DNA from: a virus
Taxonomy: Duplodnaviria > Heunggongvirae > Uroviricota > Caudoviricetes
Strand: one strand, 5' to 3'
Virus record (IMG/VR): IMGVR_UViG_2654587728_000013
Span: 1 to 43,613 of that record
DNA length: 43,613 nucleotides
Below the pieces are notes generated by a model. It made no database searches and had not been told where the DNA came from. It was given only the letters and a program-made list of their open reading frames with translations. This document shows positions 10,315-32,236 of the stretch, in pieces. Each line of letters starts with the position of its first letter. Position 1 is the first letter of the stretch. The position numbers and the translations under genes were made by a program.

Positions 10315-10653
10315 ATGGCTAAATCCGCAGCAGAGCGCAAAGCAGCGCAGCGTGCCCGCCAGGCTGAATCTGGTAACCGCAAGCTGGAATTGCAACTAGA
10401 CGAGCAGGAACTGGAGATGCTGGCGAGAAACTGCGCCGCCCGTCGCCCTGGTCGGGCGCCGTATGACATGAACGAGTACATCGCGTTGCTTATACGCCAG
10501 GATGATGCGCGGGTTCGTGGGCGCATCAAGTCAATCAGCTCTAACCGTTGCGGGAAATGTGGCGATGCGCTGCCAGTTGAGTCGTGTCCGTGTGATGGTG
10601 ATTCGGCATGCTGGGTGACGCGTGGCTGGCATGATACTAAACTAGCGGTGTGA
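10315..10653 (+). CDS. hypothetical Cys-rich protein
   Basis: ORF 10267..10653 trimmed to MAKSAAERKAAQ; C-terminal CGKCGD...CPCDGDSAC cluster; last gene before terminase. Confidence 0.45.
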   Translation: MAKSAAERKAAQRARQAESGNRKLELQLDEQELEMLARNCAARRPGRAPYDMNEYIALLIRQDDARVRGRIKSISSNRCGKCGDALPVESCPCDGDSACWVTRGWHDTKLAV

Positions 10654-10661
10654 CATGTCAC
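10650..10661. repeat. 12-bp palindrome GTGACATGTCAC (copy 1 of 3) overlapping stop codon
   Basis: Exact palindrome; same sequence at 13166..13177 and 31721..31732, each next to a GC hairpin. Confidence 0.6.
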
Positions 10662-10681
10662 GATAGAGACAATAAATTGCA

Positions 10682-10712
10682 AAGGCCGCCGACTATGGCG
10701 GCTTTGTTTTGC
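10682..10712 (+). terminator. rho-independent terminator
   Basis: AAAGGCCGCC-GACTAT-GGCGGC followed by TTTGTTTTG. Confidence 0.6.
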
Positions 10713-10720
10713 GTGTTACT

Positions 10721-10737
10721 ATTACCAAAACGGTAAT
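10721..10737. promoter_or_regulatory. operator copy ATTACC-AAAAC-GGTAAT upstream of terminase genes
   Basis: Perfect TTACC-N5-GGTAA between terminator and small terminase start. Confidence 0.5.
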
Positions 10738-10756
10738 TATTACTTCGGTGGTAACA

Positions 10757-11350
10757 ATGCCCGCAGAACCAAAAGCACCAAAACGCAAATCAACGCAGTA
10801 TAAGCCAATTACAGCGATGCAGGAGGCTTACGCGCAGGAATATACCAAATGCCCTGAGAATCAGACTCAGGCAGCGATTAACGCAGGATTTTCGCCAAAT
10901 ACGGCGGCAGTCAAGGCCAGTGTCATGATGCGTGATGAGCGTATCCAGAAACGGATCGCCGAACTGATGGAAGAGCGTAACAAGCGTTTGCGCGTCAGTG
11001 CGGACTACGTACTGCTCCGCCTGGTGGAAATTGACCAGATGGACGTGATCGATATCCTGAACGATGACGGCACACTGAAGCCTATCCGCGAGTGGCCAAA
11101 GATATGGCGTACTACACTGAGCGGTTTCGATTTGTCATCGACCATCATGAATATGAACGAGGATTCGATAGAAACAATCCTCAAAAAAATCAAATGGCCT
11201 GACAAGGTGAAGAACCTCGAGCTTATCGGTAAGCACGTCGACGTCAATGCGTTCAAAGAGCGCATGGAGGTTTCCGGCACAGTAACGATTGCCGACCGCA
11301 TGGCGAAGGCCCGCCGTCGCGTGAAAGAGCTGGATGGTGGTGAAGAATGA
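10757..11350 (+). CDS. terS: terminase small subunit
   Basis: ORF 10709..11350 trimmed to MPAEPKAPKRK; P27-like small terminase signature (AYAQEY...AAINAGFSP); immediately upstream of large subunit. Confidence 0.7.
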   Translation: MPAEPKAPKRKSTQYKPITAMQEAYAQEYTKCPENQTQAAINAGFSPNTAAVKASVMMRDERIQKRIAELMEERNKRLRVSADYVLLRLVEIDQMDVIDILNDDGTLKPIREWPKIWRTTLSGFDLSSTIMNMNEDSIETILKKIKWPDKVKNLELIGKHVDVNAFKERMEVSGTVTIADRMAKARRRVKELDGGEE

Positions 11351-12822
11351 CAGCCGCAGCCATGTCGCCGGAAGAGCAGCTTGTCGAGGATATTGCATCG
11401 TTCACATATGACCCGCTGGGCTATTCGCTGTATGCGTTTCCGTGGGGCGAAGAGGGGACAGAACTGGCGCATGCCACCGGCCCGCGAAAATGGCAGGCAG
11501 ACGCATTCCGCGAGATACGCGATCACCTGCAGAATCCAGCAACGCGTCACCAGCCGCTGATGTTGGCCCGCGCATCCGGCCACGGTATCGGTAAATCTGC
11601 GTTCATCTCGATGCTCATCAACTGGGGCATGTCTACCTGTGAAGACTGCAAGGTGGTGGTGACCGCCAACACCGACAACCAGCTGCGCACCAAAACATGG
11701 CCTGAAATCATCAAATGGTCGAACCTGGCTATCACGAAAGAGTGGTTCACCTGCACCGCCACCGCGATGTACAGCAACGATCCCGGTCACGACAAACGCT
11801 GGCGCGCTGATGCTATTCCATGGTCTGAACACAACACCGAGGCGTTCGCCGGTCTGCACAACGAACGCAAGCGCATCATCGTTGTATTCGATGAAGCGTC
11901 CAACATTGCCGATCTGGTGTGGGAAGTTGCCGAGGGTGCGCTGACGGACGAAGACACCGAAATCATCTGGGTGGCGTTCGGGAACCCTACGCGTAACACC
12001 GGGCGTTTCCGTGAATGCTTCCGCAAATACAAACACCGCTGGAAGTGCGCGCAGATAGACAGCCGCACCGTGGAAGGCACCAACAAGCAGCAGTTGCAGA
12101 AGTGGGTTGATGACTACGGCGAGGATAGCGACTTCGTGAAAGTTCGTGTACGCGGGATCTTCCCTGATGCGTCTGAACTCCAGTTTATCCCGACAGGCCT
12201 GACTGATTCCGCAATGAAGCGCGTGGTGACAGCCGGGCAGGTGGCGCACGCTCCGGTGATTATCGGTGTTGACCCGGCGTATTCCGGTGTGGATGACGCG
12301 GTGATATACCTGCGCCAGGGGCTTCACAGCAAAGTGCTATGGACCGGCAATAAGACAACCGATGATCTGATTATGGCAAAGCGTATCGCTGATTTTGAAG
12401 ACCAGTACCAGGCTGACGCTGTATTCATCGACTTCGGGTATGGTACCGGGCTGAAGTCAATCGGTGATGGCTGGGGCCGTTCCTGGCAACTGATACCTTT
12501 CGGCGGCGGCTCTACCGATCCGCAGATGCTCAACAAGCGCGGCGAGATGTTCAACAGCTGCAAAACGTGGCTGAAAATTGGTGGCGCACTGGATGACCAG
12601 GAAACGGCTGACGACCTGTCGGCGGCTGAGTACAAAGTCAGGGTGGACGGCAAGATAGTTATTGAGCCGAAGGAAGATATCAAAGAGCGGTTAGGCCGTT
12701 CTCCTGGCAAGGGTGATGCGCTGCTGCTGACGTTTGCTTTCCCGGTGTCGAAACGTATGAATATACCAGGACAGCAAAGCCAGCAGGGCAAGGCGTTGAC
12801 AGAATACGACCCCTATGCATAG
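11347..12822 (+). CDS. terL: terminase large subunit
   Basis: 491 aa; Walker A-like ASGHGIGKS, Walker B-like IIVVFDEASN; ATGA overlap with small subunit. Confidence 0.85.
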   Translation: MTAAAMSPEEQLVEDIASFTYDPLGYSLYAFPWGEEGTELAHATGPRKWQADAFREIRDHLQNPATRHQPLMLARASGHGIGKSAFISMLINWGMSTCEDCKVVVTANTDNQLRTKTWPEIIKWSNLAITKEWFTCTATAMYSNDPGHDKRWRADAIPWSEHNTEAFAGLHNERKRIIVVFDEASNIADLVWEVAEGALTDEDTEIIWVAFGNPTRNTGRFRECFRKYKHRWKCAQIDSRTVEGTNKQQLQKWVDDYGEDSDFVKVRVRGIFPDASELQFIPTGLTDSAMKRVVTAGQVAHAPVIIGVDPAYSGVDDAVIYLRQGLHSKVLWTGNKTTDDLIMAKRIADFEDQYQADAVFIDFGYGTGLKSIGDGWGRSWQLIPFGGGSTDPQMLNKRGEMFNSCKTWLKIGGALDDQETADDLSAAEYKVRVDGKIVIEPKEDIKERLGRSPGKGDALLLTFAFPVSKRMNIPGQQSQQGKALTEYDPYA

Positions 12823-13094
12823 TGAATTGATATCAGAGCTACAACCAAGGCAACTAATGCAATGATTAGTGACGCACCAGTTAGCAAAAGTGATGCGGTA
12901 TTCATCATGCGCTGATAATAGAATGCACGCATTGACTCTATTCTTTCACCGGTCTCAGCAGGGTCTTTTAATCCATTAGGGAATGTGCTTTCAAATCCTT
13001 CAAATACCTTTCTTTCAATGGCATTGTGCATGGCCATGTTCCACTCATGGGTTGAGTTCACAAAGGTATTAACAATTTTTTGTTTAATTTTCAT
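12813..13094 (-). CDS. small C-terminally membrane-anchored protein (moron)
   Basis: ORF 12813..13172 trimmed to MKIKQK so it excludes the terminator hairpin; C-terminal TM helix LLLTGASLIIALVALVVALISI; opposite strand to flanking operon. Confidence 0.45.
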   Translation of the reverse strand: MKIKQKIVNTFVNSTHEWNMAMHNAIERKVFEGFESTFPNGLKDPAETGERIESMRAFYYQRMMNTASLLLTGASLIIALVALVVALISIHYA

Positions 13095-13136
13095 GGTCCA
13101 CTCGCTGTGATAATCGAATGAGTGATTATGCCATAC

Positions 13137-13160
13137 AAAAAAGCCCGCGCATCGGCGGGC
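13137..13160 (-). terminator. rho-independent terminator (minus strand)
   Basis: GCCCGC-GCATCG-GCGGGC hairpin with T-run on minus strand, just downstream of stop of 13182..13613. Confidence 0.55.
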
Positions 13161-13165
13161 TGAAT

Positions 13166-13177
13166 GTGACATGTCAC
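13166..13177. repeat. 12-bp palindrome GTGACATGTCAC (copy 2 of 3)
   Basis: Exact copy; lies between stop of 13182..13613 and its terminator hairpin. Confidence 0.6.
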
Positions 13178-13181
13178 AGCG

Positions 13182-13613
13182 TTATATCAAATCTTTCCAT
13201 TCTACCCATTTTCCAGTTCTGCGATGGACCTCATCTCGTTTCAAAAACAGCAACTCCCTGCATCGTTCGCAGCCATCAAACTCATCGGAATTATTCTTGA
13301 AATTTTTTGCTCGGCGATACGTATAAATCCCGCAAACACAACGAGCAACATAGCGAGCACCTTTATTTTTTGCTCCTTGCGTGACAGCAAGGCCAATTAT
13401 TGTCAATCTCCCGCGCTTTCTTCCGATCATTGCTTTCACTTCTCGCCGTTGTTGCGGGTTTTTAATGTTATATACAGAAAACACTGGCAACGGCAGATCG
13501 CTGTCTCCTGTCTGGATAACTTTGTTTGGTGTCCAATCCACGCCCTTACCAACAACTCTCGCAGCAACCCGGTCAACCGGAAGGCGCTTCATGTCAAACA
13601 GGTCTTTGCTCAT
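13182..13613 (-). CDS. hypothetical basic Cys-cluster protein (moron)
   Basis: 143 aa; RBS AAGGTGAG; C-terminal CVCG...CERC cluster; opposite strand to flanking terminase/portal genes. Confidence 0.5.
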   Translation of the reverse strand: MSKDLFDMKRLPVDRVAARVVGKGVDWTPNKVIQTGDSDLPLPVFSVYNIKNPQQRREVKAMIGRKRGRLTIIGLAVTQGAKNKGARYVARCVCGIYTYRRAKNFKNNSDEFDGCERCRELLFLKRDEVHRRTGKWVEWKDLI

Positions 13614-13620
13614 AATCTCA

Positions 13621-13647
13621 CCTTAAAAAAATGCCCACCGAAGTGGG
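13621..13647 (-). terminator. intrinsic terminator on minus strand abutting the RBS of 13182..13613
   Basis: Minus strand reads GCCCAC-UUCG-GUGGGC followed by seven U, then AAGGTGAG-ATG. Confidence 0.55.
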
Positions 13648-14250
13648 CGAACTGGAAGTAAGGGTGCCTTCCATGGCAGTTACGGGTTTACAGCGCAACG
13701 TCATCGCAATGGCGTTCTGCTGTAAAAAAAGTGTCGGTACCAGCGAGGGGCAACTCGGGATGAATCTGGCACCGACAAAGTCACACAGCAATTACATTGG
13801 CACTACGGTTTACCACGGTCCTAACGTGATTCGTTTGTGGTGGCTGGTGCTGAACTCCAGCTCAGTGGCGCGGTGTTTCAATATCGTAACCGCCCGTTCC
13901 ATCCGCGTTCGATCAGTCCGTATGCTCGCTTAGAACGTTTCGCCTGCTTATCTTTTCTCAACCGTTTGACGGTCAGCCCCGCCATTAACCACAACATTGA
14001 GAGCACTGCGCCTGTATCGGTTAGCGTCATGGGATTAACCGGTCACCCCAATGCTCTCATCGTTGCATCCTCGTCTCTTCCGAGGTGTCACACCGTATCG
14101 CCACGATGGTGAATCGTCTGTCCGTGCTTACCTGACACTGGCTTGCACATTCCGGCTACCCGGCTGGGGAAGTAGCATCAATGGAACCCATCCGGACCGC
14201 TGCGGCACATGTGCCATATGCCGTACATCAACTGCGTTACATCAACATCA

Positions 14251-14267
14251 ATTACCTAAAAGGTAAT
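14251..14267. promoter_or_regulatory. operator copy ATTACC-TAAAA-GGTAAT upstream of portal operon
   Basis: Perfect TTACC-N5-GGTAA about 90 bp upstream of small ORF 14357. Confidence 0.5.
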
Positions 14268-14356
14268 ATCTGATGTTATAAGTGTCAATAGCCTACGCTA
14301 AATAAATCATATGTGGTTAAATTGGTAATAATTTAATTGCGTACGGAGCTATTGCT

Positions 14357-14563
14357 ATGTGTATCGGCAGCAAGCCATCAGTGCCAGCAGCGCCAGAAGT
14401 ACAGGCTGCGCCACAGGAGCAGGATGCAGCAGTTGTCAGTTCTCGTGACGACGAAGAACGCCGCCGCCGTGCAGCAGCAGGACGCAGTTCCACTCTGCTG
14501 ACTGGTGCTCAGGGTGACACCTCAACCGCAAACACCAGCGGTAAAACGCTGCTTGGTCAGTAA
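14357..14563 (+). CDS. small low-complexity protein preceding portal
   Basis: 68 aa; RBS GGAG 8 nt upstream; Ala/Gln/Arg-rich; could be spurious. Confidence 0.35.
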   Translation: MCIGSKPSVPAAPEVQAAPQEQDAAVVSSRDDEERRRRAAAGRSSTLLTGAQGDTSTANTSGKTLLGQ

Positions 14564-14577
14564 CGGAGTAGGCAGAG

Positions 14578-16248
14578 ATGGCGGAAACCGAAAAAGAGCG
14601 CCTGCTGAAGCAACTTGCGCAGCTGAAGAATGAGCGCACATCGTTCGAATCGCACTGGCGTGATCTGAGTGACTTCATCAATCCGCGTGGCTCCCGCTTT
14701 CTGACATCTGATGTAAACCGTGATGATCGCCGTAACACCAAGATTGTTGATCCCACTGGCTCAATGGCTCAGCGCATTCTGTCCAGCGGCATGATGTCAG
14801 GCATCACCAGTCCGGCACGACCGTGGTTCAAACTGGCAACGCCTGACCCTGACATGATGGACTATGGCCCGGTGAAAATCTGGCTGGAAGTCGTGCAGCG
14901 CCGCATGAACGAAGTGTTCAACAAATCGAATTTGTATCAGTCACTGCCTGTTATGTACGCAAGTCTGGGTACTTTCGGCACCGGCGCTATGGCTGTTCTG
15001 GAAGATGACCAGGACGTGATCCGCACAATGCCTTTCCCTATTGGCAGTTACTACCTGGCTAACAGTCCGCGCGGTAGCGTAGACACCTGCATTCGCCAGT
15101 TCTCCATGACCGTGCGCCAGATGGTGCAGGAATTCGGTCTGGATAACGTCAGTACATCCGTAAAAGGCATGTGGGAAAATGGCACGTATGAAACGTGGGT
15201 GGAGGTTAACCACTGCATCACGCCTAACGTCAACCGCGACAGCGGTAAGATGGACAGCAAGAACAAGCCTTACCGCTCTGTCTATTTCGAAACTGGCGGT
15301 GACGCTGACAAGCTGCTGCGTGAATCCGGATTTGATGAATTCCCTATTCTGGCGCCGCGCTGGGAAGTGAATGGCGAAGACGTTTACGCCTCATCCTGTC
15401 CTGGAATGCTGGCACTCGGTCAGGTTAAAGCCCTTCAGGTTGAGCAGAAGCGCAAAGCTCAGTTGATCGATAAAGCCACTAACCCGCCGATGGTTGCCCC
15501 GACATCGCTCAAGAATCAGCGGGTTTCCCTGTTGCCTGGCGATGTGACGTACCTCGACGTGTTGACCGGTCAGGATGGTTTCAAACCTGCATACCTGGTA
15601 AACCCGAATACCGCCGACCTGCTGGCTGACATTCAGGACACTAGGCAGACCATCAACAGCGCCTACTTCGTTGACCTCTTCATGATGCTGCAAAACATCA
15701 ACACCCGATCTATGCCGGTGGAAGCGGTGATCGAGATGAAGGAAGAGAAACTGCTGATGCTTGGCCCGGTGCTTGAGCGCCTGAATGACGAAGCGCTTAA
15801 CCCGCTTATCGATCGCGTGTTCTCAATCATGGCCCGCAAGAACATGTTGCCAGAACCTCCTGACGTTCTTCAGGGTATGCCGCTGCGTATCGAGTACATC
15901 TCTGTGATGGCTCAGGCTCAGAAATCTATCGGCCTCACCAGCCTGTCGCAGACAGTTGGATTTATCGGGCAACTGGCGCAGTTCAAACCTGAAGCGCTCG
16001 ACAAGCTTGATGTGGATCAGGCTATCGACGCGTTCTCTGAAATGTCAGGCGTATCGCCAACCGTCATCGTTCCGCAGGAGCAGGTACAGGGTATTCGTGA
16101 AGAGCGAGCTAAACAGGCTCAGGCGGCACAGGCAATGGCTATGGGTCAGGCGGCAGCGCAGGGGGCCAAGACTCTCAGCGAAACGCAGACCAGCGACCCG
16201 AGCGCATTAACTGCTATCGCTAATGCAGCAGGAGCACCGCAGCAATGA
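14578..16248 (+). CDS. portal protein
   Basis: 556 aa directly after terminase module; RBS GGAG; size and position typical of portal. Confidence 0.75.
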   Translation: MAETEKERLLKQLAQLKNERTSFESHWRDLSDFINPRGSRFLTSDVNRDDRRNTKIVDPTGSMAQRILSSGMMSGITSPARPWFKLATPDPDMMDYGPVKIWLEVVQRRMNEVFNKSNLYQSLPVMYASLGTFGTGAMAVLEDDQDVIRTMPFPIGSYYLANSPRGSVDTCIRQFSMTVRQMVQEFGLDNVSTSVKGMWENGTYETWVEVNHCITPNVNRDSGKMDSKNKPYRSVYFETGGDADKLLRESGFDEFPILAPRWEVNGEDVYASSCPGMLALGQVKALQVEQKRKAQLIDKATNPPMVAPTSLKNQRVSLLPGDVTYLDVLTGQDGFKPAYLVNPNTADLLADIQDTRQTINSAYFVDLFMMLQNINTRSMPVEAVIEMKEEKLLMLGPVLERLNDEALNPLIDRVFSIMARKNMLPEPPDVLQGMPLRIEYISVMAQAQKSIGLTSLSQTVGFIGQLAQFKPEALDKLDVDQAIDAFSEMSGVSPTVIVPQEQVQGIREERAKQAQAAQAMAMGQAAAQGAKTLSETQTSDPSALTAIANAAGAPQQ

Positions 16249-16544
16249 TGGATATCGACGACGAAGGACGCAAAGCAGAGCTTGACGCCAAACAGCAACT
16301 TCTGGCTCAGCGTGATATCGACGACATCAAGTTCGTTATGGGTAGCGAGCAAGGCCGCCGCGTTATCTGGTCGATGCTGGAGAGGGGAAAGGTGTTCTCA
16401 CCATGCTTCGCTGGTGATTCGCACTTAACTGCATTCAACGAAGGGCAGCGCAACCTGGCACTGGCATTGTTTCAGCGCGTCATGGCGCACTGTCCTGAAC
16501 AGTATCTGAAAATGGCCGCTGAGTCTCAGGAGAAAGACAAATGA
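16245..16544 (+). CDS. hypothetical head-morphogenesis protein
   Basis: 99 aa; ATGA-coupled to portal. Confidence 0.45.
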   Translation: MMDIDDEGRKAELDAKQQLLAQRDIDDIKFVMGSEQGRRVIWSMLERGKVFSPCFAGDSHLTAFNEGQRNLALALFQRVMAHCPEQYLKMAAESQEKDK

Positions 16545-17086
16545 TCCGTAAACGCATGATCAGGCTGAGAAACGATGGTAACTCGACCATTGCAGACTTT
16601 TATGCAGTGGATGAAGAGCCGCAGACATTTCAGATGGACATATTTAACTGGACTGGATCTCAGGTTGTGGCTGATGCCGCTTTTCAGAACTTCTTTTCAC
16701 TTTCCGGGATCGTTAAAGCTGCTGACGGTAACGCGAATCTCAGCATCAATTCGGGAAATCTTATATTCCCTGCTCAGGAAGCGCCGAGCCAGGTTCTTTT
16801 CAGTACCCGTATTAACGGTACCGTTGGTGGTGCGTCAGGAACGGCAAGGGAATGGATGATTCAGACCAGGCGCCCAAATGGCGACATCGTCGGATCCGAG
16901 TCAAGCGTGAAGGTGAACGGAACCAGCATCAGTAACCGTGACGATGTACTTGCCAGTTTCACCATGAATGAACTTGATCCGTTCACCGTCAGCGGAATTC
17001 AGGTCGGCCTTTCAAATGAATCAGGCCAGACCATCACGTTGACCTCTGTATCTGTCAGGGTTCAACGCGTCATCAGCATTGATTAA
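16541..17086 (+). CDS. hypothetical virion protein
   Basis: 181 aa; coupled to upstream gene. Confidence 0.45.
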   Translation: MIRKRMIRLRNDGNSTIADFYAVDEEPQTFQMDIFNWTGSQVVADAAFQNFFSLSGIVKAADGNANLSINSGNLIFPAQEAPSQVLFSTRINGTVGGASGTAREWMIQTRRPNGDIVGSESSVKVNGTSISNRDDVLASFTMNELDPFTVSGIQVGLSNESGQTITLTSVSVRVQRVISID

Positions 17087-17100
17087 CAAGAAGGTAACGT

Positions 17101-17811: not shown

Positions 17812-17825
17812 GAGAGGAAATAACC

Positions 17826-18812: not shown

Positions 18813-18863
18813 CGCCTGTTATTAACTGATGGGCCTTAACCGGCCCATGAATGGAGAAAGAAA

Positions 18864-19304: not shown

Positions 19305-19314
19305 GGGGATAGCG

Positions 19315-19695
19315 ATGTCAGGTGAAAAAGCAAGATACCGCGTCCTGCGTTTATCTCACATTCATAACAACCTCTGGCCAGAAGGCTCTGAAGTTGAGTA
19401 TGACGGCGAACCAGGTACGGCGCTGGAGCCACTGAACGATGCGGCGAAATTGGCAAAAGAGATCGCCGAAAAGCGTAAAGGAAGATCGGCTTCTGTAGTT
19501 ATCAATGTTCCATCTCCAGCTGCGGTTCATCAAGTAGTGGAAGAAGTGAAATCTGATGGCACTGGCGCGGTAAGTGAAGACCTTACTCTGCTTCGACAGC
19601 AGTATGAGGATTTACTAGGCAAGAAGCCGGGCAATAAAACGGCTGAAACTCTGGCAAAAGAGATCGCCGAAAAGCGTGCCGAACTGGGCGTCTAA
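19315..19695 (+). CDS. hypothetical protein with internal 27-bp direct repeat
   Basis: 126 aa; LAKEIAEKR occurs twice; followed by terminator. Confidence 0.45.
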   Translation: MSGEKARYRVLRLSHIHNNLWPEGSEVEYDGEPGTALEPLNDAAKLAKEIAEKRKGRSASVVINVPSPAAVHQVVEEVKSDGTGAVSEDLTLLRQQYEDLLGKKPGNKTAETLAKEIAEKRAELGV

Positions 19696-19711
19696 GCCTC
19701 GCTAATCAAAC

Positions 19712-19733
19712 AAGGGGCTTCGGCCCCTTTATT
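19712..19733 (+). terminator. rho-independent terminator/attenuator
   Basis: AAGGGGC-TTCG-GCCCCTT followed by TATT. Confidence 0.6.
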
Positions 19734-19746
19734 GCAGGAGTCCGTT

Positions 19747-24158: not shown

Positions 24159-24170
24159 GGAGACATAGAA

Positions 24171-26792
24171 ATGCCAACAGTACCAACAGTCACCGGTCGA
24201 CAGGTAGAAAGCAGAGGGTTTCAGTCTCCTGGGTTTCAGGCATTCGATCAGCCAAATATCGGTGATGCTATCGTCGACGCTGGCAGCAAAGCCATCAACG
24301 TATTTGGAGAGGCCAAGCAACGGGCAAATGTGGCACTTACCCAAGAGGCAACTCTTCAACTGAATGCGGTTGGCAACGATCTGCTAAATAACCCTGATTC
24401 AGGATTCATGAATCTGCAAGGGAAGAACGCGATCGGCAAGGGGCAGGAGTACGTGCAGCAGTTTGATTCTCAGGCGCAGAGCATTGCAGCAAGCCTGCCG
24501 GATGAGCAGGCGCGAAATGCGTTTCTTCAGCAGGCACAGCAGCAGAGAATCCAGTTCAAGACGACCGCTGTTCGCCATGAAGTTGGGCAGGTGCGTCAGT
24601 ACGAAGCAGGTATGCAGGAGGGAACGTTACGTTCGCTGGCACAGCAGGCGATTTCTCCTGGTCTGTTTGTTCCTGCATTGATGAATGCTCGTAATTCTAT
24701 TATCGCTTATGGGAAAGCCCACGGACAGAGCGATGAGGAAATAGAGTCTAATTTCGTGCAGTGGCGTGAGCAGGCCGCCAACCGCGCCAGCGAAGCATGG
24801 TATACACCAACCTATCAGCAAATCATGGGGCCGGAAGGTAAGATCGAAGTTACCGACACTCCGAGCGAATCGCAGCTTTTTTCCGCGATGATCTGGCAGG
24901 AATCCGGAGGTAATCAGTATGGCAAAGACGGTTTACCACTGGTATCTCCGAAAGGTGCAGTAGGGGTGGCGCAGGTGATGGAGGATACGGGGCCGGAAGC
25001 AGCACGACTGGCTGGCGTACCGTGGGATCGTGATAAGTGGCTGAACGATACGCGCTACAATGCGAAGCTTGGTCAAGCCTACTTCGGCGCGCAGATGAAG
25101 AAGTATGACAATAATCCTGTACTGGCGGTGGCGGCGTATAACGCTGGGCCAGGTGCGGTTGATGGATGGATAAAGCAGTTTGGCGACCCGCGTACTGGTG
25201 CGGTGAGCAATGAGCAATTCGCTGCGGCAATCCCTTATGATGAAACTCGCAACTATGTCGCGAAAGTAACCGGCAGCGCTCCGGCGATACCAGGAACTGC
25301 TACGATGGAAAACCTCATCAATCAGCCTTTCTGGGATGCGATGAGTCCGCAGAACAAATCAGCGATGATGAGCAAAGTGGCAGGCATGTACGATATGCAA
25401 GCCGCAGCTGGTCGCGTGTCATTGCAAAGCCGCATGCAGGATGACCTTGCTAAATTAGAGTCAGGACAGAAAGTTAACCCGATCTCGGAACGTGAGTGGC
25501 TGGCGGTCATGCCGTTGCAGGCAAGCCCGGCGGAGCGCATTCAGATGCGCGAGTCATTCCAGCAATATCAGCAGGCGATGACGCTGCAACCGGTATATCA
25601 ATCCATTGTTCAGGGTTCTGCGCAGCAGGGTATCGCTGCGGTGCAGTCTATGGTGCCGCAGGAAGATGACCCTGACTTTAAATTTAAGCAGAGCTTGTAC
25701 GCAACTGCGCAGGCCAAACTGAATCAGGTAATTAAAGCGCGCGAGTCCGACCCGGGTACGTGGCTACAAGCCAACTCGCCGGTGGTGAAAAACGCCTTTG
25801 AGCAATATCAGAACAACCAGGCATCAGGTGAATATCTGGTTTCCCGTCTGCAAGCAGAGAAAGACCGCCTTGGTATCAATAGTAAGAAGGTACTTCCTGA
25901 CGCCATGGTTAACAACCTCATTTCTCAGATCGATAACAATAAAGAATCAAGCGTAACCGCCATTCAGTCGGTGGCGCAGTCGTTCGGAAAATACTCCGAT
26001 CAGGTTATGCAGCAGGTGCAGAAAAGCGCATATCCAGCGCTTCAAGTCATCATGGCGACCAATAATCCTCGGGCCGCCAACGCGCTCTGGCAAAACCGCA
26101 GTGTTAAAACTTCTGACCTGCGCGGCAGCTTTGAGAAGACAGACGCCGACAGCGCTGATTCATCTTGGAATGACCAGGCAAAAGATTTTGCCGGGACGAT
26201 GGTTGTACAGCCTGGCGGGTCTGCCGTGTGGAACAACTTCAACGAGCAGGGTAAACGCCTGACCTACACCTATATGCAGCGCGGCATGTCGCCTGGCGAT
26301 GCAGCAAAACAGGCATATCAGGACGTTCTCGGTGAGCAGTATCAGACCAATGGCACCTGGCGTATGCCTAACAACGCCGGGCATGATATTCGTGACGTTA
26401 ATGACGGCGCTAACGTGTACCTGAAGAATCTGTCAGCAGATCAGATCATGCCGCTAATCGGTGACGCCCGTCTGCCGGATGAGGTTAACCGAGAGCAAAG
26501 TATTTCCCGCATTCGTGATAACGCACAGTGGGTAACCAACAGCGACGAAACAGGGCTTACGCTGATGATGAATGGTCTGTTGATCAACAATGCGCAGGGG
26601 CAGCCGATTACAGTTTCGTTTGCTGACCTCGCGAAACTTGGCGCTGGCAACCGTACAACTTGGAACAGCCTGACCAAATTCGTGCAGACGCCGGTTAAGT
26701 ACACTCCGGGCCAGTCGAAGAATTACACGGTAGAAAGTCAGCGTGAAAATCTGATCAACATTATCCAGAACGGCCAGCAGACGGGACGATAA
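24171..26792 (+). CDS. internal virion protein with lytic transglycosylase (SLT) domain
   Basis: 873 aa; WQESGGNQYGKDG...GVAQVMEDTGPE...AAYNAGPGAVDGW matches SLT signature. Confidence 0.75.
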   Translation: MPTVPTVTGRQVESRGFQSPGFQAFDQPNIGDAIVDAGSKAINVFGEAKQRANVALTQEATLQLNAVGNDLLNNPDSGFMNLQGKNAIGKGQEYVQQFDSQAQSIAASLPDEQARNAFLQQAQQQRIQFKTTAVRHEVGQVRQYEAGMQEGTLRSLAQQAISPGLFVPALMNARNSIIAYGKAHGQSDEEIESNFVQWREQAANRASEAWYTPTYQQIMGPEGKIEVTDTPSESQLFSAMIWQESGGNQYGKDGLPLVSPKGAVGVAQVMEDTGPEAARLAGVPWDRDKWLNDTRYNAKLGQAYFGAQMKKYDNNPVLAVAAYNAGPGAVDGWIKQFGDPRTGAVSNEQFAAAIPYDETRNYVAKVTGSAPAIPGTATMENLINQPFWDAMSPQNKSAMMSKVAGMYDMQAAAGRVSLQSRMQDDLAKLESGQKVNPISEREWLAVMPLQASPAERIQMRESFQQYQQAMTLQPVYQSIVQGSAQQGIAAVQSMVPQEDDPDFKFKQSLYATAQAKLNQVIKARESDPGTWLQANSPVVKNAFEQYQNNQASGEYLVSRLQAEKDRLGINSKKVLPDAMVNNLISQIDNNKESSVTAIQSVAQSFGKYSDQVMQQVQKSAYPALQVIMATNNPRAANALWQNRSVKTSDLRGSFEKTDADSADSSWNDQAKDFAGTMVVQPGGSAVWNNFNEQGKRLTYTYMQRGMSPGDAAKQAYQDVLGEQYQTNGTWRMPNNAGHDIRDVNDGANVYLKNLSADQIMPLIGDARLPDEVNREQSISRIRDNAQWVTNSDETGLTLMMNGLLINNAQGQPITVSFADLAKLGAGNRTTWNSLTKFVQTPVKYTPGQSKNYTVESQRENLINIIQNGQQTGR

Positions 26793-26793
26793 T

Positions 26794-28500
26794 ATGCCGA
26801 TTTATACAGATGACCCAGGGCAGGGAATAAACCAGCCGCTGTCGAATGCCCCATCAGGGCTTGGTGAATCGCTGCTTTCCTCCCTGAAAGAGGGATTCAA
26901 AGAGGGGCCTGTTGTGTCAGGTTATCGGTTTTCTCAAGCCGACCAACTGGCAAATGACCCAAATTCGACCATCGTCAGTAAATCTGACGCGGAAACACGC
27001 CTTAAAGAGTACGGCGTTAAAAGTATCAATGTGCCTGACGGCGGTGTTACACAAACATTCCTCGACCATGTGATCAGCGAGCGCAGAGAAACTCTGGCGA
27101 AGCAGCAGATCGCCATGTCTGCCCCGTCTGGATGGGTTGCCACTCCGCTTAACTTTGCCGCAAACCTTGCAGGATCAATGGCTGATCCCGGTAACGTGGC
27201 TTTGGCGCTGGTCCCGTTCGGTGGAGAAGCAAAGGCGGCAACTATGCTTGGGCGCTTCGGTGAGCGTCTTTCCACCGGTGCTCGGCTTGGCGCTGCTCAG
27301 GCCATTGCCACCGTACCTCTGACGGCACAGGCAGCAGCGGCAGAAGGAGATGACTTCACATATGGCAACGCGCTGGAGAGCACCTTCTTTAACACCATCG
27401 CTGGCGGGTTGATGCACGCTGGCGGCGGGCTGATATCGGATGTGGTACGCTCCCGCAGGGCTGGTACTGTTGAAAATCCTGCTGCCTCGCAAGACGTTCA
27501 GCCTGTCGCTGATGCGCAGCCAACACCGGTGTTTACGCCTGACAATATACCGGCAGGCGTAAATATTCCTGAGTCCGGCACCAACGCCGATCTGTCAGCG
27601 GCAATCGCGCGGGATGCGGAAGCGTATGCCTACAGCCGCGCCTATGATGATGTTGTGCCGGAATATATGGCAAGGCAGCAGGAGCTACAGACAGGGAGCA
27701 TTGACAACGTTGCGGATCTGCGAACTGAGTTGGTGACCAACAACAGGCAAAGTGAGGCACTTGACGCAACTCTGGCCCAGCGCACGACCGATTACCAGGC
27801 GCAACGCATGAAATTCAAAGCAGCACGAGCCAGGGCGCAGCGAGATATTGAGGTTGAGAAAGACGCCATCACCGCGCGTAACCAGGAAATTACGCAACAG
27901 ATTGAACGTAATGCTGCAGCAGAGCAGGCAAAAGGCAGAGAGGCGCAACTGTCCCGCAAAGAGATACCTGACGACTTGGCGCCGTTGATAGCCCAGCGTG
28001 CGCAACAGATTCGCGAAAGCATGCAGATGTCGCCTGTGGCTGGCGCAGTGCGCACTGCGTCGGCAGCGGTTCGTGAGGCTGACTGGAGCGTTAACCAGCA
28101 GGCGTATCGAGGCGCACTGGCGCACATGATGGAAGGGCGCTCGCCTGATATTGAGCCATTCTATGATCTGCACAAACCAGCTCTACGCGAGCGTGCTATC
28201 CAGCGCATACAAAATCCGGTGCGGCAGGCTGATGAAGGTTCCCGCGCCGTCAGTGAAAGTGCGGATCGTGTGTGGCAGGATACGCAGAAGGTTGACCATG
28301 AAATAACAGCGGCTACCGCTGATCTGGAAAATGAATTTAATATCAGTGATGCGCTGCTGAACGACATTGCCACTGACAATCCTGACCTGGCTGCGTCGAT
28401 GCGGGAGAATATTGCAGCGATCCGTGCAGAGGCCAGTGACGACTCTATCGGAAAAGCGTACCGCGCTTTCGCCGCCTGTCTGATTAACCGGGGGCTGTAA
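26794..28500 (+). CDS. internal virion / ejection protein (putative)
   Basis: 568 aa; in injection-protein block. Confidence 0.5.
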   Translation: MPIYTDDPGQGINQPLSNAPSGLGESLLSSLKEGFKEGPVVSGYRFSQADQLANDPNSTIVSKSDAETRLKEYGVKSINVPDGGVTQTFLDHVISERRETLAKQQIAMSAPSGWVATPLNFAANLAGSMADPGNVALALVPFGGEAKAATMLGRFGERLSTGARLGAAQAIATVPLTAQAAAAEGDDFTYGNALESTFFNTIAGGLMHAGGGLISDVVRSRRAGTVENPAASQDVQPVADAQPTPVFTPDNIPAGVNIPESGTNADLSAAIARDAEAYAYSRAYDDVVPEYMARQQELQTGSIDNVADLRTELVTNNRQSEALDATLAQRTTDYQAQRMKFKAARARAQRDIEVEKDAITARNQEITQQIERNAAAEQAKGREAQLSRKEIPDDLAPLIAQRAQQIRESMQMSPVAGAVRTASAAVREADWSVNQQAYRGALAHMMEGRSPDIEPFYDLHKPALRERAIQRIQNPVRQADEGSRAVSESADRVWQDTQKVDHEITAATADLENEFNISDALLNDIATDNPDLAASMRENIAAIRAEASDDSIGKAYRAFAACLINRGL

Positions 28501-31046
28501 TGGCTAACGAATTTCTTACGCAATGCGAAATGACCGTCAATGCAGCTGCCGGGCGCAAGCTGTCTGATGACGAAATGGAATCTTTGGTGCGTGACATGAA
28601 CGACACCACAAACCGGATACTGGCTGGTAATGAAGCACTGACGCTGGAAGAAGCAGCGATGCGCGCCGCGCAGGAGCTTGGTAATCGCGAGCAACTGGCT
28701 AAAGTCATTGAGGCACGGAATAAGGCCATTAATACCCGTATTGCAGCTCAGCGCCTTGGCGAGCTTCGCCGGACTTGGAAAGACCGTCCGGACATCGGTC
28801 TGGAGGCTATTCTTGTCGGACGTAATGACGCGCGCACTGGTTCCCGCCGCTCGGTATCCTCTGAGGTTGCCCAACTGCGCGGTAAGTATCATGCTGGTAT
28901 CAACTATGATTTCGACCAGGCAGGACTGGTTAAATTTATTGCCAGTGGCAGCAATGACCGCGAGATAGCCGACGCCATGTGGCGCATTGGCCGCGGACAG
29001 AAAACGGACGGTATGACGCCGCAATCAGTCAGTGCCGCTAAGATCATCATGAAGTGGCAGGAAACTGCGCGCGTGGATGAAAACCGTGCTGGTGCCTGGA
29101 TTGGTAAGATGCCTGGCTACATCGTCCGGCAGTCGCATGACATACTGAAAATCCGTGCCGCCGGGTATGAATCCTGGCGCAATACCATTCTGCCGCGGCT
29201 GGATGATGCCACCTTTGACGGGATCACAGACCGAGAAGGGTTCCTGCGTGGTGTCTACGACGGCCTTGCCTCCGGTGTGCACCTTACCTCTGAAAAACCA
29301 GACTGGATGAATGGCTTTAAGGGATCGGCGAATGCGGCCAAACGAGCCAGCCAGGAGCGGGTGTTGCACTTCAAAGACGGTGTTAACTGGCACGAATACA
29401 ACGAGCAATTCGGAACTGGCAGCCTGCGTGAGGCAGTATTCGGCGGACTGAACAGCGCGGCGCGCACTACGGGCATGATGCGCGTGCTTGGTACCAACCC
29501 GCAGAACATGTTCAAGTACCTGACAGACACCATCGCAAAAGACGTGAGCAAGCAGAGCAACCCTTCGGCGCTGGCTGATTTCATGACCAAGGTGCGCCGC
29601 CTGAATCGCACGGTTATGCCACAGGTTGATGGATCGCTGAATATCCCCGGCAGTGTTGGCTGGGCTAATGCCTCAGCCAACGTGCGCGGCTGGCTGCGTA
29701 TGAGTCAGCTTGGAGGAGCGGTCATTTCATCTTTTAACGACGTGCCAATCTCGGCGACAGAAATGCGGTATCAGGGCCAGAACTTCATGCAGGCGCTGAC
29801 CGGCGCGATGAAGGGGCGCTTTTCCCGCTACACCAGTGATGAGCAGAAGGAGATCCTTTCATCTATCGGCGTTTACTCCGACGCGATGACGCAGGAAATC
29901 ATCCGTCGCATGTCTGGCGACGACAGCATGAGCGGCAAGATGGGGCGTGCGCAGCAGCTATTCTTCAAATACAACCTTATGAACTTCTGGACAGAATCCG
30001 GGCGTAACAGCAACGCCATGATGATAACAAACTGGCTGGCGAAGAACGCCGATCAGCAATTTTCTGCACTGCCGGAGGACCTGCGCCGCGTTCTGGACCT
30101 GCACGGCATAGGTGACGCTGAATGGAATATCTACCGCAGCATGGACATGGCAGACAGCGAAGGCCGCAAATTCATGACGACCAGCGGAATTCGTGGCGTT
30201 CCGGATGAGGTGATAGCCTCATATGTTGAAGGAAAAGGCATGAAGGTCACCGAGCGATCTATTGCCGATGCGAGAGACACGCTGGAAAGCCAACTTCGTG
30301 GGTATATTCTTGACCGACTAAACATCGCTATGTCAGAGCCGGGAGATCGTACGCAGGCGTTTATGAAGATGGGCACTGTACCAGGAACAGTAGCTGGGGA
30401 GGCAATACGTTTCGCTGGTCAGTACAAATCGTTCACTGCGAGTTTCATGCAGAACGTGCTTGGACGTGAGGTATTCGGGCGCGGTTATACTCCCGCTGGC
30501 CTGGGTGAATCAAAAACAGGATCGCTGACGAATGCGCTGCTGCGTAACGGAAAAGGTGCATTCTTGGGGGCGGCAAACCTGTTCGTCTGGGCAACCATGT
30601 TTGGCTATATCTCTATGCAGTCGAAACTATTGCTTAAGGGGCAGACGCCGCGTCCGGCAGATGCCAAGACATTCCTCGCAGCCGCATCTCAGGGCGGCGG
30701 CCTAGGCATCTTGGGCGACTTCATGTTTGGCGAAGTCAATCGCATGGGTGCTGGTCCAGTGACATCATTGATGGGGCCAGCCGCGTCGAACGCTGATAGC
30801 ATTATCACGCTGTTCCAGCAGACAACGCGCGGCGATGCAGACCTGGGTGACTGGTATCGCACCGCGCTGGACAATACGCCTTTCCTTAACGTGTTCTGGC
30901 TGCGCACAGCAATGAATGGTTTAATATTGAACCGTATACAGGATGCTCTTGACCCTGGATCACTGGAGCGCTATCAGCGCCGTGTTGAACGGGAGCAGGG
31001 TAACGACTTTCTGATCCCACCATCGCAGTTCATGCTAGGGAAGTAA
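28500..31046 (+). CDS. large internal virion / ejection protein (putative)
   Basis: 848 aa; last large gene of the core block. Confidence 0.5.
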   Translation: MANEFLTQCEMTVNAAAGRKLSDDEMESLVRDMNDTTNRILAGNEALTLEEAAMRAAQELGNREQLAKVIEARNKAINTRIAAQRLGELRRTWKDRPDIGLEAILVGRNDARTGSRRSVSSEVAQLRGKYHAGINYDFDQAGLVKFIASGSNDREIADAMWRIGRGQKTDGMTPQSVSAAKIIMKWQETARVDENRAGAWIGKMPGYIVRQSHDILKIRAAGYESWRNTILPRLDDATFDGITDREGFLRGVYDGLASGVHLTSEKPDWMNGFKGSANAAKRASQERVLHFKDGVNWHEYNEQFGTGSLREAVFGGLNSAARTTGMMRVLGTNPQNMFKYLTDTIAKDVSKQSNPSALADFMTKVRRLNRTVMPQVDGSLNIPGSVGWANASANVRGWLRMSQLGGAVISSFNDVPISATEMRYQGQNFMQALTGAMKGRFSRYTSDEQKEILSSIGVYSDAMTQEIIRRMSGDDSMSGKMGRAQQLFFKYNLMNFWTESGRNSNAMMITNWLAKNADQQFSALPEDLRRVLDLHGIGDAEWNIYRSMDMADSEGRKFMTTSGIRGVPDEVIASYVEGKGMKVTERSIADARDTLESQLRGYILDRLNIAMSEPGDRTQAFMKMGTVPGTVAGEAIRFAGQYKSFTASFMQNVLGREVFGRGYTPAGLGESKTGSLTNALLRNGKGAFLGAANLFVWATMFGYISMQSKLLLKGQTPRPADAKTFLAAASQGGGLGILGDFMFGEVNRMGAGPVTSLMGPAASNADSIITLFQQTTRGDADLGDWYRTALDNTPFLNVFWLRTAMNGLILNRIQDALDPGSLERYQRRVEREQGNDFLIPPSQFMLGK

Positions 31047-31047
31047 T

Positions 31048-31419
31048 ATGAACAGAATTATATTAATGACTCTTCTTATTTTTTTTGTTGGAAAAGCTTC
31101 TGCTGATACTACATCACCTTTAATGATTCAGCCTAAAAATGGAGAAACATTGGAGGATTCTAAAAAGCATACAATGGAATACTTTGGATGCATAAAAGGG
31201 CAGGCTGTAAAGTATGCCAAGACAGGAGAAAGTGTTGATTCCATATCAAAAGCTTCGGTTGTGTCATGCGAGTCATATATACCAATGATCGCCGAGTCGA
31301 ATATATATTATTTAAACTCTTCGCAAGATGGTAAGCGGCAATTTACAGAAAGGCTAAAATCTGATGGTGAGAGATTAGCCACAAAATTTGCCATGGATGA
31401 GAAGATTAAAAATAAATAG
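31048..31419 (+). CDS. small secreted protein (AT-rich moron)
   Basis: 123 aa; signal peptide MNRIILMTLLIFFVGKASA; visibly low GC (estimated ~35%, not computed). Confidence 0.55.
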   Translation: MNRIILMTLLIFFVGKASADTTSPLMIQPKNGETLEDSKKHTMEYFGCIKGQAVKYAKTGESVDSISKASVVSCESYIPMIAESNIYYLNSSQDGKRQFTERLKSDGERLATKFAMDEKIKNK

Positions 31420-31427
31420 GTGACCAC

Positions 31428-31724
31428 ATGCAAGCTATTGGTTTCATTGTTTACATAGTTGTTGGTCTTTTTCAGTTGGCTGCGATCATGGCTGGTCTTG
31501 AATCGTGGTGGGGACTGCACTGGATAGTGGCTGCACCCATTGCTTTCATCGTTAGTTATATCCCGTTGGTCGGTTCCATTGTTGGAATGGTTGGCGCTGT
31601 CGACGTATGGCGTTGGGAATGGTGGCAGGCAGGGCTTCTTTTCTTTGGCGGCCTGGTTTTTGCTATTGCGTGCGGGGGGATGTCTTCGTTCTTCGAATGG
31701 CTATCCTTCAGGAAAAGAGCGTGA
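31428..31724 (+). CDS. small three-TM membrane protein
   Basis: 98 aa; three hydrophobic helices; RBS AGGTGA; stop overlaps GTGACATGTCAC palindrome. Confidence 0.55.
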   Translation: MQAIGFIVYIVVGLFQLAAIMAGLESWWGLHWIVAAPIAFIVSYIPLVGSIVGMVGAVDVWRWEWWQAGLLFFGGLVFAIACGGMSSFFEWLSFRKRA

Positions 31725-31732
31725 CATGTCAC
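31721..31732. repeat. 12-bp palindrome GTGACATGTCAC (copy 3 of 3)
   Basis: Exact copy overlapping stop of 31428..31724; GC hairpin 25 bp downstream. Confidence 0.6.
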
Positions 31733-31748
31733 AAAGGCCACTGCACCC

Positions 31749-31771
31749 ACAAAAAAGCCCGCGTCGCGGGC
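31749..31771 (-). terminator. rho-independent terminator (minus strand; possibly bidirectional)
   Basis: GCCCGCG-T-CGCGGGC hairpin with A-run on plus / T-run on minus, directly after stop of 31772..32236. Confidence 0.55.
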
Positions 31772-32236
31772 TTACTCTTCTTCATCGCTACCAAAGAGCG
31801 GGTTATCGTTGTAGTCAGAGAGAAGAAACGGTATGTGCTCCCTCGAATACCCAACCACAACTATTTCATCTCCGTCTTTCGCATAGTGAATGCATTCATT
31901 TGAATGCTTCCCACCAGGGTTGAATTTTAAGTCAACAGTATGATTTCTGAAGGTGTTAGGATACCACGTGGGACCACAATGATAGTGCCAGTAATTTTCC
32001 TGCTCATAATTGTCTGAACCGGGAATTTTATCATAGTTGTCGTCAACCCAAGATGGCTTGTTTTTACCTACAAGCGTTCTGCCATTGGCAACATCTTCCA
32101 TAAAATTTTGGATGGTTTCCAACTCCAGGTCCGTGAGATGTGGTCCATCTACTGCGAAAGGTTCGTTACTGGCACCGGTTATAAAGCCAAATGCAACCCT
32201 AGGCTTAAACTTCAAGTTACACCCCTGACAGGTCAA
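31772..32236 (-). CDS. hypothetical protein with acidic C-terminal tail
   Basis: 154 aa; only start-like codon at 5' end is TTG immediately after in-frame TAA of upstream small ORF; start uncertain. Confidence 0.4.
   Translation of the reverse strand: MTCQGCNLKFKPRVAFGFITGASNEPFAVDGPHLTDLELETIQNFMEDVANGRTLVGKNKPSWVDDNYDKIPGSDNYEQENYWHYHCGPTWYPNTFRNHTVDLKFNPGGKHSNECIHYAKDGDEIVVVGYSREHIPFLLSDYNDNPLFGSDEEE

Follow-up and report, generated by a model that had tools for sequence, protein, structure and literature searches.

MatP, a protein with a four-helix bundle and a coiled coil, is found in Enterobacterales, Vibrio and Aeromonas. The consensus of its matS sites is 13 bp long (GTGACRNYGTCAC), with a 3-bp spacer (PMC6907758 Table 2). 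Proteins of the TraR/DksA family, which are common in temperate phages, carry a DxxDxA motif on their N-terminal helix (PMC9239242), and the target of TraR is RNA polymerase rather than DNA (PMC6970531). Ribbon-helix-helix (RHH) proteins bind DNA as dimers that insert a two-stranded antiparallel ribbon into the major groove. In lambda, Q is the last early gene and is separated from the late genes by its DNA site and a terminator; the binding element of Q proteins of this type is part of a late promoter with a sigma-dependent pause. LacI bound at O3 reportedly forms a roadblock at the lacI 3' end (said to be the subject of Abo et al. 2000, EMBO J).

We analyzed a window of 43,613 nucleotides, positions 1 to 43,613 of an IMG/VR virus record, which represents an epsilon15-like phage (Uetakevirus) and carries a repeated palindrome with the same arms as E. 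coli matS. The phage site is one base shorter (12 bp, with a 2-bp spacer) and is therefore not matS. The features under discussion are:

10315-10653, plus strand: gp49-like gene encoding 112 aa and assigned to phrog_536 ('transcriptional regulator'); its product is the candidate binder
10650-10661: site A, GTGACATGTCAC, enclosing the stop (TGA) of the gp49-like gene, at the junction of the early-right operon and terS
10682-10705, plus strand: intrinsic terminator after site A, hairpin plus GTTTTG
10722-10736: immunity-repressor-type operator TTACC-N5-GGTAA upstream of terS, context only
13142-13161, minus strand: intrinsic terminator after site B, AGCCCGCCGATGCGCGGGCT plus TTTTTTG
13166-13177: site B, GTGACATGTCAC, downstream of terL and 4 nt before the minus-strand terminator
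13182-13613, minus strand: cargo gene, variable among relatives, that runs up to site B (143 aa, phrog_18493)
31428-31724, plus strand: small gene of 98 aa, variable and without a Pfam family, whose end falls in site C
31721-31732: site C, GTGACATGTCAC; the structural operon's final small gene has its TGA stop inside it
31755-31773: terminator following site C, bidirectional (scored on both strands), AAGCCCGCGTCGCGGGCTT
34399-34410: possible fourth site, GTGACCCGTCAC, with perfect arms and centre CC, within the tailspike ORF

Palindromes and terminators in Uetakeviruses

As the original prediction had claimed, the window holds exactly three copies of GTGACATGTCAC, compared with a mean of 0.01 in 100 dinucleotide shuffles, none of which reached three. 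Chance origin of these copies is ruled out by the shuffles together with the enrichment in distant-homologue loci described below. The copies overlap or closely follow stop codons, again as predicted: site A encloses TGA 10651-10653 of the ORF at 10267/10315-10653, site C encloses TGA 31722-31724 of the ORF at 31428-31724 and site B lies 4 nt past the TAA (13184-13182, minus strand) of the ORF at 13182-13613. The count of three stands for exact copies, to which we add the perfect-arm site at 34399, present in seven related loci and absent from epsilon15.

At sites A, B and C alike, the transcript that ends there runs past the palindrome into a terminator-like hairpin with a T-run, which agrees with the predicted order of palindrome and hairpin. 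By terminator scan and folding, all three are GC-rich hairpins with T-runs at the end of a transcription unit, and their equivalents in epsilon15 and phiV10 are annotated as terminators. Relatives carry an AGGCCGC-type hairpin after site C that is truncated in the window, where a second hairpin 22 nt further on takes the terminator role. Gaps between site and terminator range from 0 to 41 nt and are commonly 0-4 nt. The proposed palindrome-hairpin module is a composite, with terminator adjacency specific to Uetakeviruses, where 64% of sites adjoin a terminator compared with 1% in other lineages.

The site keeps its three positions in epsilon15, phiV10, Tyrion, PAT1 and about 140 related contigs, even though the flanking genes and the terminator sequences differ between relatives. 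Site B adjoins 17 kinds of cargo sequence: the 13182-13613 gene gives way to unrelated genes, many of which have their stops at a fixed distance of 4 nt from the palindrome. The flanks of site C fall into 16 kinds upstream and 13 downstream. As judged by sequence comparison, the 12-mer is a conservation island independent of its flanks and apparently selected in its own right. Its conservation is not that of gp49 coding sequence, since sites B and C are non-coding or lie in unrelated genes, and since in some relatives an extra gene splits gp49 from site A and the site persists.

The constrained unit is GTGAC-N2-GTCAC, with invariant arms and a variable centre, and the 12-bp perfect palindrome has the form of a short symmetric operator. 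Across the window and its relatives (1.5 Mb), 219 sites have a 2-bp spacer and none a 3-bp spacer; the corresponding counts in distant lineages are 79 and 0, giving about 300 sites that all share the 2-bp spacer. Sites occur in both orientations and in coding frames. Together with a predicted 12-mer hairpin of only -1.2 kcal/mol, this makes it extremely unlikely that the element acts at the RNA level, where it would affect stability, processing or termination as a small hairpin or a motif bound by protein at the 3' ends of mRNAs. Such a role would suit Uetakeviruses, where the site is always transcribed just ahead of a terminator and overlaps or abuts stop codons, but arm variants are single changes without compensation, the sites of other lineages face either way relative to transcription and also fall inside coding sequence, and Rfam finds no known RNA family at the sites.

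The term 'shared boundary element' used in the original prediction fits Uetakeviruses as a description. A recombination, cassette-exchange or homing site, or the scar of a common insertion, that generates the adjacent variable regions is very unlikely to be the primary function, even though the sites fall exactly on mosaic junctions, the stop-to-palindrome gap at site B is fixed across so many cargo classes and the hairpin after site C appears recombined in the window. No recombinase or homing nuclease co-varies with the site, and the HNH ORF of the window (9154-9525) has no match in the four reference genomes. Cargo is flanked by a single copy rather than two; this lack of a second copy per junction also separates the sites from integron attC and cassette sites, and the sole integrase is the phage Int (40121-41311). 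A conserved stretch of about 45 bp, site plus terminator, suffices as a passive junction for homologous recombination. The original prediction had named occurrence at similar frequency inside core genes of relatives as evidence against a boundary role, and the sites of N15/phiKO2 and Mu-like phages come close to this, lying inside conserved essential genes (repA, transposase A) with no variable region nearby.

Co-occurrence of site and gp49 family

All of the 80 terL loci examined have a gp49-family gene, and in most its stop codon lies within the site. All three copies do mark 3' ends, but the gene at site A is a core gene rather than an accessory one, as had been thought. The stop-in-site arrangement recurs for N15 gp46, phiKO2 Gp45, a P2-like Yersinia phage and two further contigs (L151 and L153), and in Mu-like phages the site falls within the last 13 codons, where it encodes V-T-G-H. 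Among loci found through distant homologues, 45 of 48 carry the site, with 79 sites in 811 kb where arbitrary palindromes with 5-mer arms average 0.9. Gene and site are both present in N15, phiKO2, YenM_201.16, K253 and epsilon15, as well as in Mu-like and Vibrio phages with the family, and neither is found in lambda, P2 or Mu (first 12 kb). Overall, the site co-occurs with this predicted DNA-binding family in at least five phage lineages, which, with its flank-independent conservation, supports the regulator-site option of the original prediction.

This pairing of gene and site in several unrelated phage types appears undescribed. Our literature search found none of these 12-mers in a phage context, and the ZX5 paper, which treats a regulatory protein of a Uetakevirus, does not deal with palindromes, terminators or the control of late genes.

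Several other candidates were rejected. The epsilon15 'repressor' sites are a different motif, TTACC-N5-GGTAA, of which the window has 12 copies marking transcription-unit starts, and epsilon15 gp48 ('bZIP motif') has no homologue in the window that could serve as the binder. Although an MT-A70 methylase belongs to the Uetakevirus core, no methylase is annotated in the P2-like Yersinia carrier, which argues against a methyltransferase or restriction target. A pac or terminase site is excluded by N15 being a cos phage and by the distance of Mu-like and N15 sites from terminase genes. The SopB/ParB centromere of N15-like phages has a different sequence; the phiKO2 partition sites (GTGCGACCACGGTCGCAC) differ in both sequence and position from the three GTGAC-N2-GTCAC sites. 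A sigma-70 promoter using the GTGACA hexamer scored at site A only, and the scan found no promoter context at sites B and C.

The gp49-family protein

The family includes epsilon15 gp49, N15 gp46 and phrog_536. The gp49-like protein is predicted to combine a basic N-terminal helix, an RHH-like strand-helix-helix and a Cys-rich, TraR-like zinc finger. A first AF2 model, built from close homologues, reached a pLDDT of 63.6, and a fold search on it was uninformative; another model (pLDDT 91) has an RHH-like N-terminal half and a TraR/DksA-like zinc finger, with neither assignment significant. Its top structural matches were TacA, KacA, MazE, ParD and NikR, with MatP-matS among the best. Pfam RHH models match the family below threshold only, and the single gp49-like protein had no matches in Pfam, NCBIfam or PDB sequences.

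The protein resembles RHH repressors (P22 Arc and Mnt, CopG, RHH antitoxins) in its small size, its predicted strand-helix-helix and a short palindromic site of about one dimer footprint. It differs in that its sites lie at gene or operon 3' ends or inside genes, rather than at the regulator's own promoter, and in the added N-terminal basic helix and C-terminal zinc finger. It also has no toxin partner gene, which rules out a toxin-antitoxin reading.

For the zinc finger, a search of PDB sequences with the family profile gave TraR, TraR and YbiI as its top three matches (hmmsearch E 0.03-0.04), and hhalign gave a probability of 77.7% (E 1.9e-5); single family members did not match the Pfam zf-dskA_traR model. 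What is shared with the RNA polymerase secondary-channel binders F TraR, lambda Orf73 and P2 Orf82 is a long helix, a CxxCG..(I/L)P...G...C zinc finger and a C-terminal helix, the first CxxC and third Cys aligning with TraR at similar spacing. In contrast, the gp49 family carries a further, N-terminal half and is linked to a DNA site, lacks the DxxDxA tip motif (the aligned region is R-x-P-Y, not acidic) and does not conserve R48/R49 or the fourth zinc cysteine, which is replaced, with alternative Cys at 91/93. Its finger is thus not of the TraR C4 type (CxxC-17-CxxC with R48/R49).

The matS-like half-sites raise the question of whether host MatP, or another host factor, binds the sites as variant matS and so ties phage or prophage into chromosome organisation. 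The structural match to MatP-matS agrees with this, as does one true matS-consensus 13-mer in Vibrio phage K253, and all phage records with the gp49 family infect Enterobacterales, Vibrio or Aeromonas, the MatP-bearing groups. We nevertheless consider host binding very improbable: not one of the roughly 300 sites has the 3-bp spacer, the sites follow the phage gene rather than the host (with none in lambda, P2 or the first 12 kb of Mu) and in at least four lineages one copy is physically joined to the stop codon of the phage gene. Nor was sequence-level homology detected between MatP and the gp49 family (hhalign probability 0.2% with E. coli MatP, its sequence verified against 4D8J), MatP was not retrieved by the profile searches of PDB sequences and the zinc finger is a feature of the phage protein.

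A candidate operator at transcription-unit ends

We infer that a gp49-family protein binds the site. Taken as a whole, the explanation that we consider probable is that GTGAC-N2-GTCAC is the gp49-family operator at transcription-unit ends and acts as a boundary for RNA polymerase. The protein would be the last product of the early-right operon, its dimer probably docking on the 12-bp palindrome through the RHH-like N-terminal half and its C-terminal half bearing the TraR/DksA-like zinc finger. The three Uetakevirus sites stand at the ends of three transcription units, directly upstream of their terminators, and bound protein may act on elongating RNA polymerase as an orientation-independent boundary that reinforces these ends. 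One site covers gp49's own stop codon, so stalling at site A would truncate gp49 mRNA and provide gene-specific negative feedback of the LacI-O3 type. There too the regulator's site lies over the 3' end of its own gene, and occupancy may truncate the mRNA before the stop codon, but O3 is an auxiliary operator whereas the phage site is a high-symmetry primary site.

Whether bound protein would block or terminate transcription, or instead antiterminate it, can be inferred only weakly. With the same binder and the opposite effect, the sites would form a Q-like antitermination switch that times late gene expression: accumulated gp49 would bind upstream of each terminator and engage RNA polymerase, possibly through the TraR-like domain, and polymerase would read through into terS/terL and past the structural operon. 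The gp49 gene occupies the position of a lambdoid Q, last in the early-right operon and immediately before site, terminator and late genes; the tight spacing to terminators, the similarity of the C-terminal half to an RNA-polymerase-binding protein and the lack of any other recognisable late regulator in Uetakeviruses also fit. We regard antitermination as fairly unlikely, however. The module at site B faces minus-strand cargo transcripts, so read-through would yield RNA antisense to terL, and every late unit comes with its own site of the repressor-operator type, which points to a separate promoter. Spacing to the terminators is variable, and the carriers among N15, P2-like and Mu-like phages already possess Q, Ogr or Mor, with their sites placed away from terminators. 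The family has no homology to lambda Q or similarity to known Q families (no Pfam or NCBIfam match to Q antiterminators), and, unlike in lambda, the site is not embedded in a promoter and one of three belongs to a unit on the opposite strand.

Returning to the operator at unit ends, the gp49 family, so far 'hypothetical' or a generic 'transcriptional regulator', gains a testable function and a precise DNA target across epsilon15/phiV10-type serotype-converting, N15-type telomere, Mu-like, P2-like and Vibrio phages. It is unusual for an operator to cover the stop codon of its own regulator, as it does here in several unrelated phage architectures. The suggested partitioning of Uetakevirus genomes, with immunity-repressor operators at unit starts and site plus terminator at unit ends, would explain the exchange of accessory (moron) genes at precisely these points. 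Contact between the TraR-like half and RNA polymerase, if it occurs, would give the family site-specific control of elongation or termination. A bolder and unlikely extension is that it represents a novel type of transcription factor, in which a half that binds DNA sequence-specifically is joined to an RNA-polymerase-binding module of the TraR/DksA type, and which is parked at defined genome points (operon ends, inside replication or transposition genes, its own stop codon). There it would choose locally between stop and read-through for arriving polymerase, and, as its half-sites are those of matS, it would share ancestry with the DNA-reading part of MatP. The near-identity to matS raises the concrete question of cross-talk or shared origin with host chromosome organisation.

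Palindromes and terminators in Uetakevirus genomes

The window represents an epsilon15-like podovirus of the genus Uetakevirus, with the Salmonella phages PAT1 and epsilon15 as its nearest relatives. The original prediction of three copies of one palindrome at gene ends was confirmed: GTGACATGTCAC occurs exactly at 10650, 13166 and 31721 only, compared with a mean of 0.01 copies in dinucleotide-preserving shuffles (0 of 100 reached three). Its placement on or next to stop codons was also borne out, as was the hairpin that comes after each copy in the direction of the transcript ending there; a T-run accompanies each hairpin. Site A lies between terS and the last early-right gene (the epsilon15 gp49 homologue), site B just past terL, where a minus-strand cargo gene ends, and site C where the long structural operon ends, adjoining the minus-strand antirepressor operon.

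Palindromic sites and terminator-like elements in the window
10650: site A; the TGA stop of ORF 10267/10315-10653 lies inside the site
10682-10705 (+): terminator-like hairpin and T-run after site A
13166: site B; 4 nt beyond the TAA of the minus-strand ORF 13182-13613
13161-13142 (-): terminator-like hairpin and T-run after site B
31721: site C; the TGA stop of ORF 31428-31724 lies inside the site
31755-31773 (both strands): terminator-like hairpin and T-run after site C
34399-34410: possible fourth site, GTGACCCGTCAC, its arms perfect, within the tailspike ORF; shared by 7 related loci, not by epsilon15

The palindrome is found three times, at the corresponding positions, in each of epsilon15, phiV10, Tyrion and PAT1 (two of these copies have a one-base difference, none is annotated). 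The sites recur in IMG/VR loci, of which 80 were anchored on terL and 65 on the final large structural gene. Judged from these comparisons of sequence, the palindrome is conserved in its own right and its flanks are not. Among unique sequences, site B is preceded by 17 classes of upstream (cargo) flank versus 4 downstream, with the stop codons of many unrelated cargo genes 4 nt from the palindrome, while site C has 16 upstream and 13 downstream classes, among which the hairpin takes at least six different sequences. In loci with an additional gene inserted downstream of gp49, the palindrome persists on the far side of that gene. The common variant affects the central pair only (AT to AG/CT); neither the arms nor the 2-bp spacing varies, with 219 sites having a 2-bp spacer versus none with 3 bp in 1.5 Mb.

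A strict terminator-like hairpin was found within 45 nt of 64% of 157 unique Uetakevirus sites, mostly 0–4 nt off, compared with 6% of random positions, but beside only 1 of 75 sites in other lineages. The combination of palindrome and hairpin therefore holds as a module specific to this genus and not as a general unit. The palindrome is a general element, put at the ends of transcription units in Uetakevirus, and we disfavour the alternative that it acts in RNA. One sublineage of phiV10-type relatives (for example, contig L002, from 39101 across the record ends) has, between site A and the terminator, a conserved mini-ORF of 8 codons (ATG CAT GAT GAA TTT GAT GGG TTT TGA; MHDEFDGF, variant MCDEYDGF). 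Its stop codon is 4 nt ahead of the hairpin, and it might be a leader peptide coupling translation to termination.

Probable repressor sites and other features of the window

A different motif, TTACC-N5-GGTAA, marks the starts of those transcription units, with 12 copies in the window where 0.04 are expected. Apart from those at OL and OR, copies precede terS, the gp3/portal operon, the antirepressor operon and the tailspike gene, as if every late unit were under the direct control of the immunity repressor. Their counterparts in the epsilon15 record are annotated there as repressor sites.

Copies of TTACC-N5-GGTAA in the window
5034, 5110, 5173, 5897, 5914, 8234, 8296, 10722, 14252, 32420, 33459, 33842

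The minus-strand antirepressor operon begins with a 92-aa protein (33505-33783, -), a homologue of epsilon15 gp19 with 84–100% identity across five genomes; in epsilon15 and PAT1, its homologues share ~40% identity with the antirepressor-like ORF 32500-33198 over 77–79 residues. Upstream of that gene, the homologues of which are annotated Bro-N/antirepressor, Rfam matches place a C4 antisense RNA (33238-33323, -; 77 bits) and an isrK Hfq-binding RNA (33348-33422, -; 76 bits), the same type of arrangement as immI of P1/P7, here in a podovirus. An HNH endonuclease ORF (9154-9525, +) matches nothing in epsilon15, phiV10, Tyrion or PAT1 and probably entered the early-right operon as a mobile insertion. 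The integrase directly follows the lysis genes (39689-41311), an order shared with the epsilon15 phage record, so the window appears to be arranged as a phage genome and not as a prophage opened at attP.

The gp49 family as candidate binder

The gp49 homologue, whose gene ends inside site A, was picked from small proteins common to all five complete genomes. PHROGs assigns it to phrog_536 ('transcriptional regulator'); as a single query it had no matches in Pfam, NCBIfam or PDB sequence searches, and the family is without a curated domain model. Exhaustive searching yielded 157 family clusters at 50% identity, and members occur in only 150 of 50,697 phage records, from Uetakeviruses and N15-like, Yersinia P2-like, Vibrio and Aeromonas phages.

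The site and the protein recur together across these phages. N15, an unrelated siphovirus whose prophage is a linear plasmid, has gp46 as its homologue and contains exactly three GTGAC-N2-GTCAC sites (about 0.04 expected; GTGACTGGTCAC is an N15 form): one enclosing the TGA stop of gp46, one within repA and one upstream of the antirepressor operon. Three sites occupy the same places in phiKO2, distinct from its annotated SopB partition sites. The sole site of the P2-like Yersinia phage vB_YenM_201.16 is on the homologue's stop codon, and sites overlap that stop in contigs L151 and L153 or lie 1–2 nt past it in L152 and L176. In Mu-like transposable phages (identified by MuA, MuB, GemA and Mor), the site is read as V-T-G-H in the homologue's last 13 codons, with two further sites inside the transposase gene. 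Of the three sites in Vibrio phage K253, one precedes the terS start codon by 19 nt. Among the 48 loci reached via distant homologues, 45 contained the site, with 79 copies in 811 kb; arbitrary palindromes with 5-mer arms averaged 0.9, and the next-best arm gave 22. Neither a gp49-family protein (family HMM) nor any site was present in lambda, in P2 or in the first 12 kb of Mu.

Our main argument for taking the family as the binder is that site and protein co-occur in this way and that, in at least four phage architectures, one copy is physically fused to the stop codon of the gene; we infer that it binds the site, and the 12-mer is quite probably its operator. In L157, L163 and similar loci (GC 43–48%), an intergenic cluster lies ~540 bp or more downstream of the homologue, where degenerate copies at roughly 35-bp intervals flank an exact site (GTGACATGGCAC ... 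GTGACATGTCAC ... GTGACTGACAC) in what looks like a multi-site operator.

The arms are identical to those of matS, the Escherichia coli MatP binding site (consensus GTGACRNYGTCAC; PMC6907758), but the phage site is always one base shorter and so, by the defining consensus, is not matS. Action of host MatP at the sites is disfavoured. In hhalign comparisons, the gp49 family gave a probability of 0.2% versus MatP and 78% versus TraR. K253 (L201) also carries, at 19491, one true matS-consensus 13-mer, GTGACACCGTCAC (~0.009 expected).

The best PDB sequence matches of the family profile were TraR, TraR and YbiI (E about 0.03), and in the AF2 model (pLDDT 91.4, diverse alignment) a basic helix (5-19) leads into an extended segment (20-29), which is followed by helices 30-42 and 52-75, a zinc knuckle and one last helix. 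TraR-type proteins, which phages encode, target RNA polymerase and not DNA (PMC6970531, PMC9239242). Functional TraR is defined by a DxxDxA motif, R48/R49 and a fourth cysteine, none of which is conserved here, so the family was not filed under TraR. P2 (L203) has a bona fide TraR homologue, Orf82, at 27548-27772, just ahead of replication gene A; the gp49-family protein of vB_YenM_201.16 (L200) is at 6936-7295, just past gene A.

Possible roles at unit ends

Bound at unit ends, the gp49-family protein might form a boundary that works on elongating polymerase in either orientation and reinforces the terminators, a polymerase effect we propose only tentatively. LacI bound at O3 can truncate its own mRNA; on this model, the gp49-family protein would, at its own stop codon, truncate its own message and limit its own synthesis. 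Antitermination, as by Q of lambda, fits the gene's position equally well but is harder to reconcile with the orientation of site B, the variable spacing and the other lineages.

Of the roles initially proposed, a regulator site is favoured by the co-occurring gp49 family, whereas a recombination site is disfavoured: the coincidence of sites with mosaic junctions is best explained passively, since homologous exchange among related phages would resolve where a conserved site and terminator have dispensable DNA on either side.

The searchable literature contains no mention of these 12-mers in a phage context. As far as sequence can tell, the gp49 family belongs to a known kind, that of small DNA-binding regulators of phages that act at palindromic operators. 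What is unusual is that the operator sits on the regulator's own stop codon, that its matS-like half-sites have a different spacer, that the protein may carry a polymerase-binding zinc finger and that the sites lie at operon ends, not promoters.
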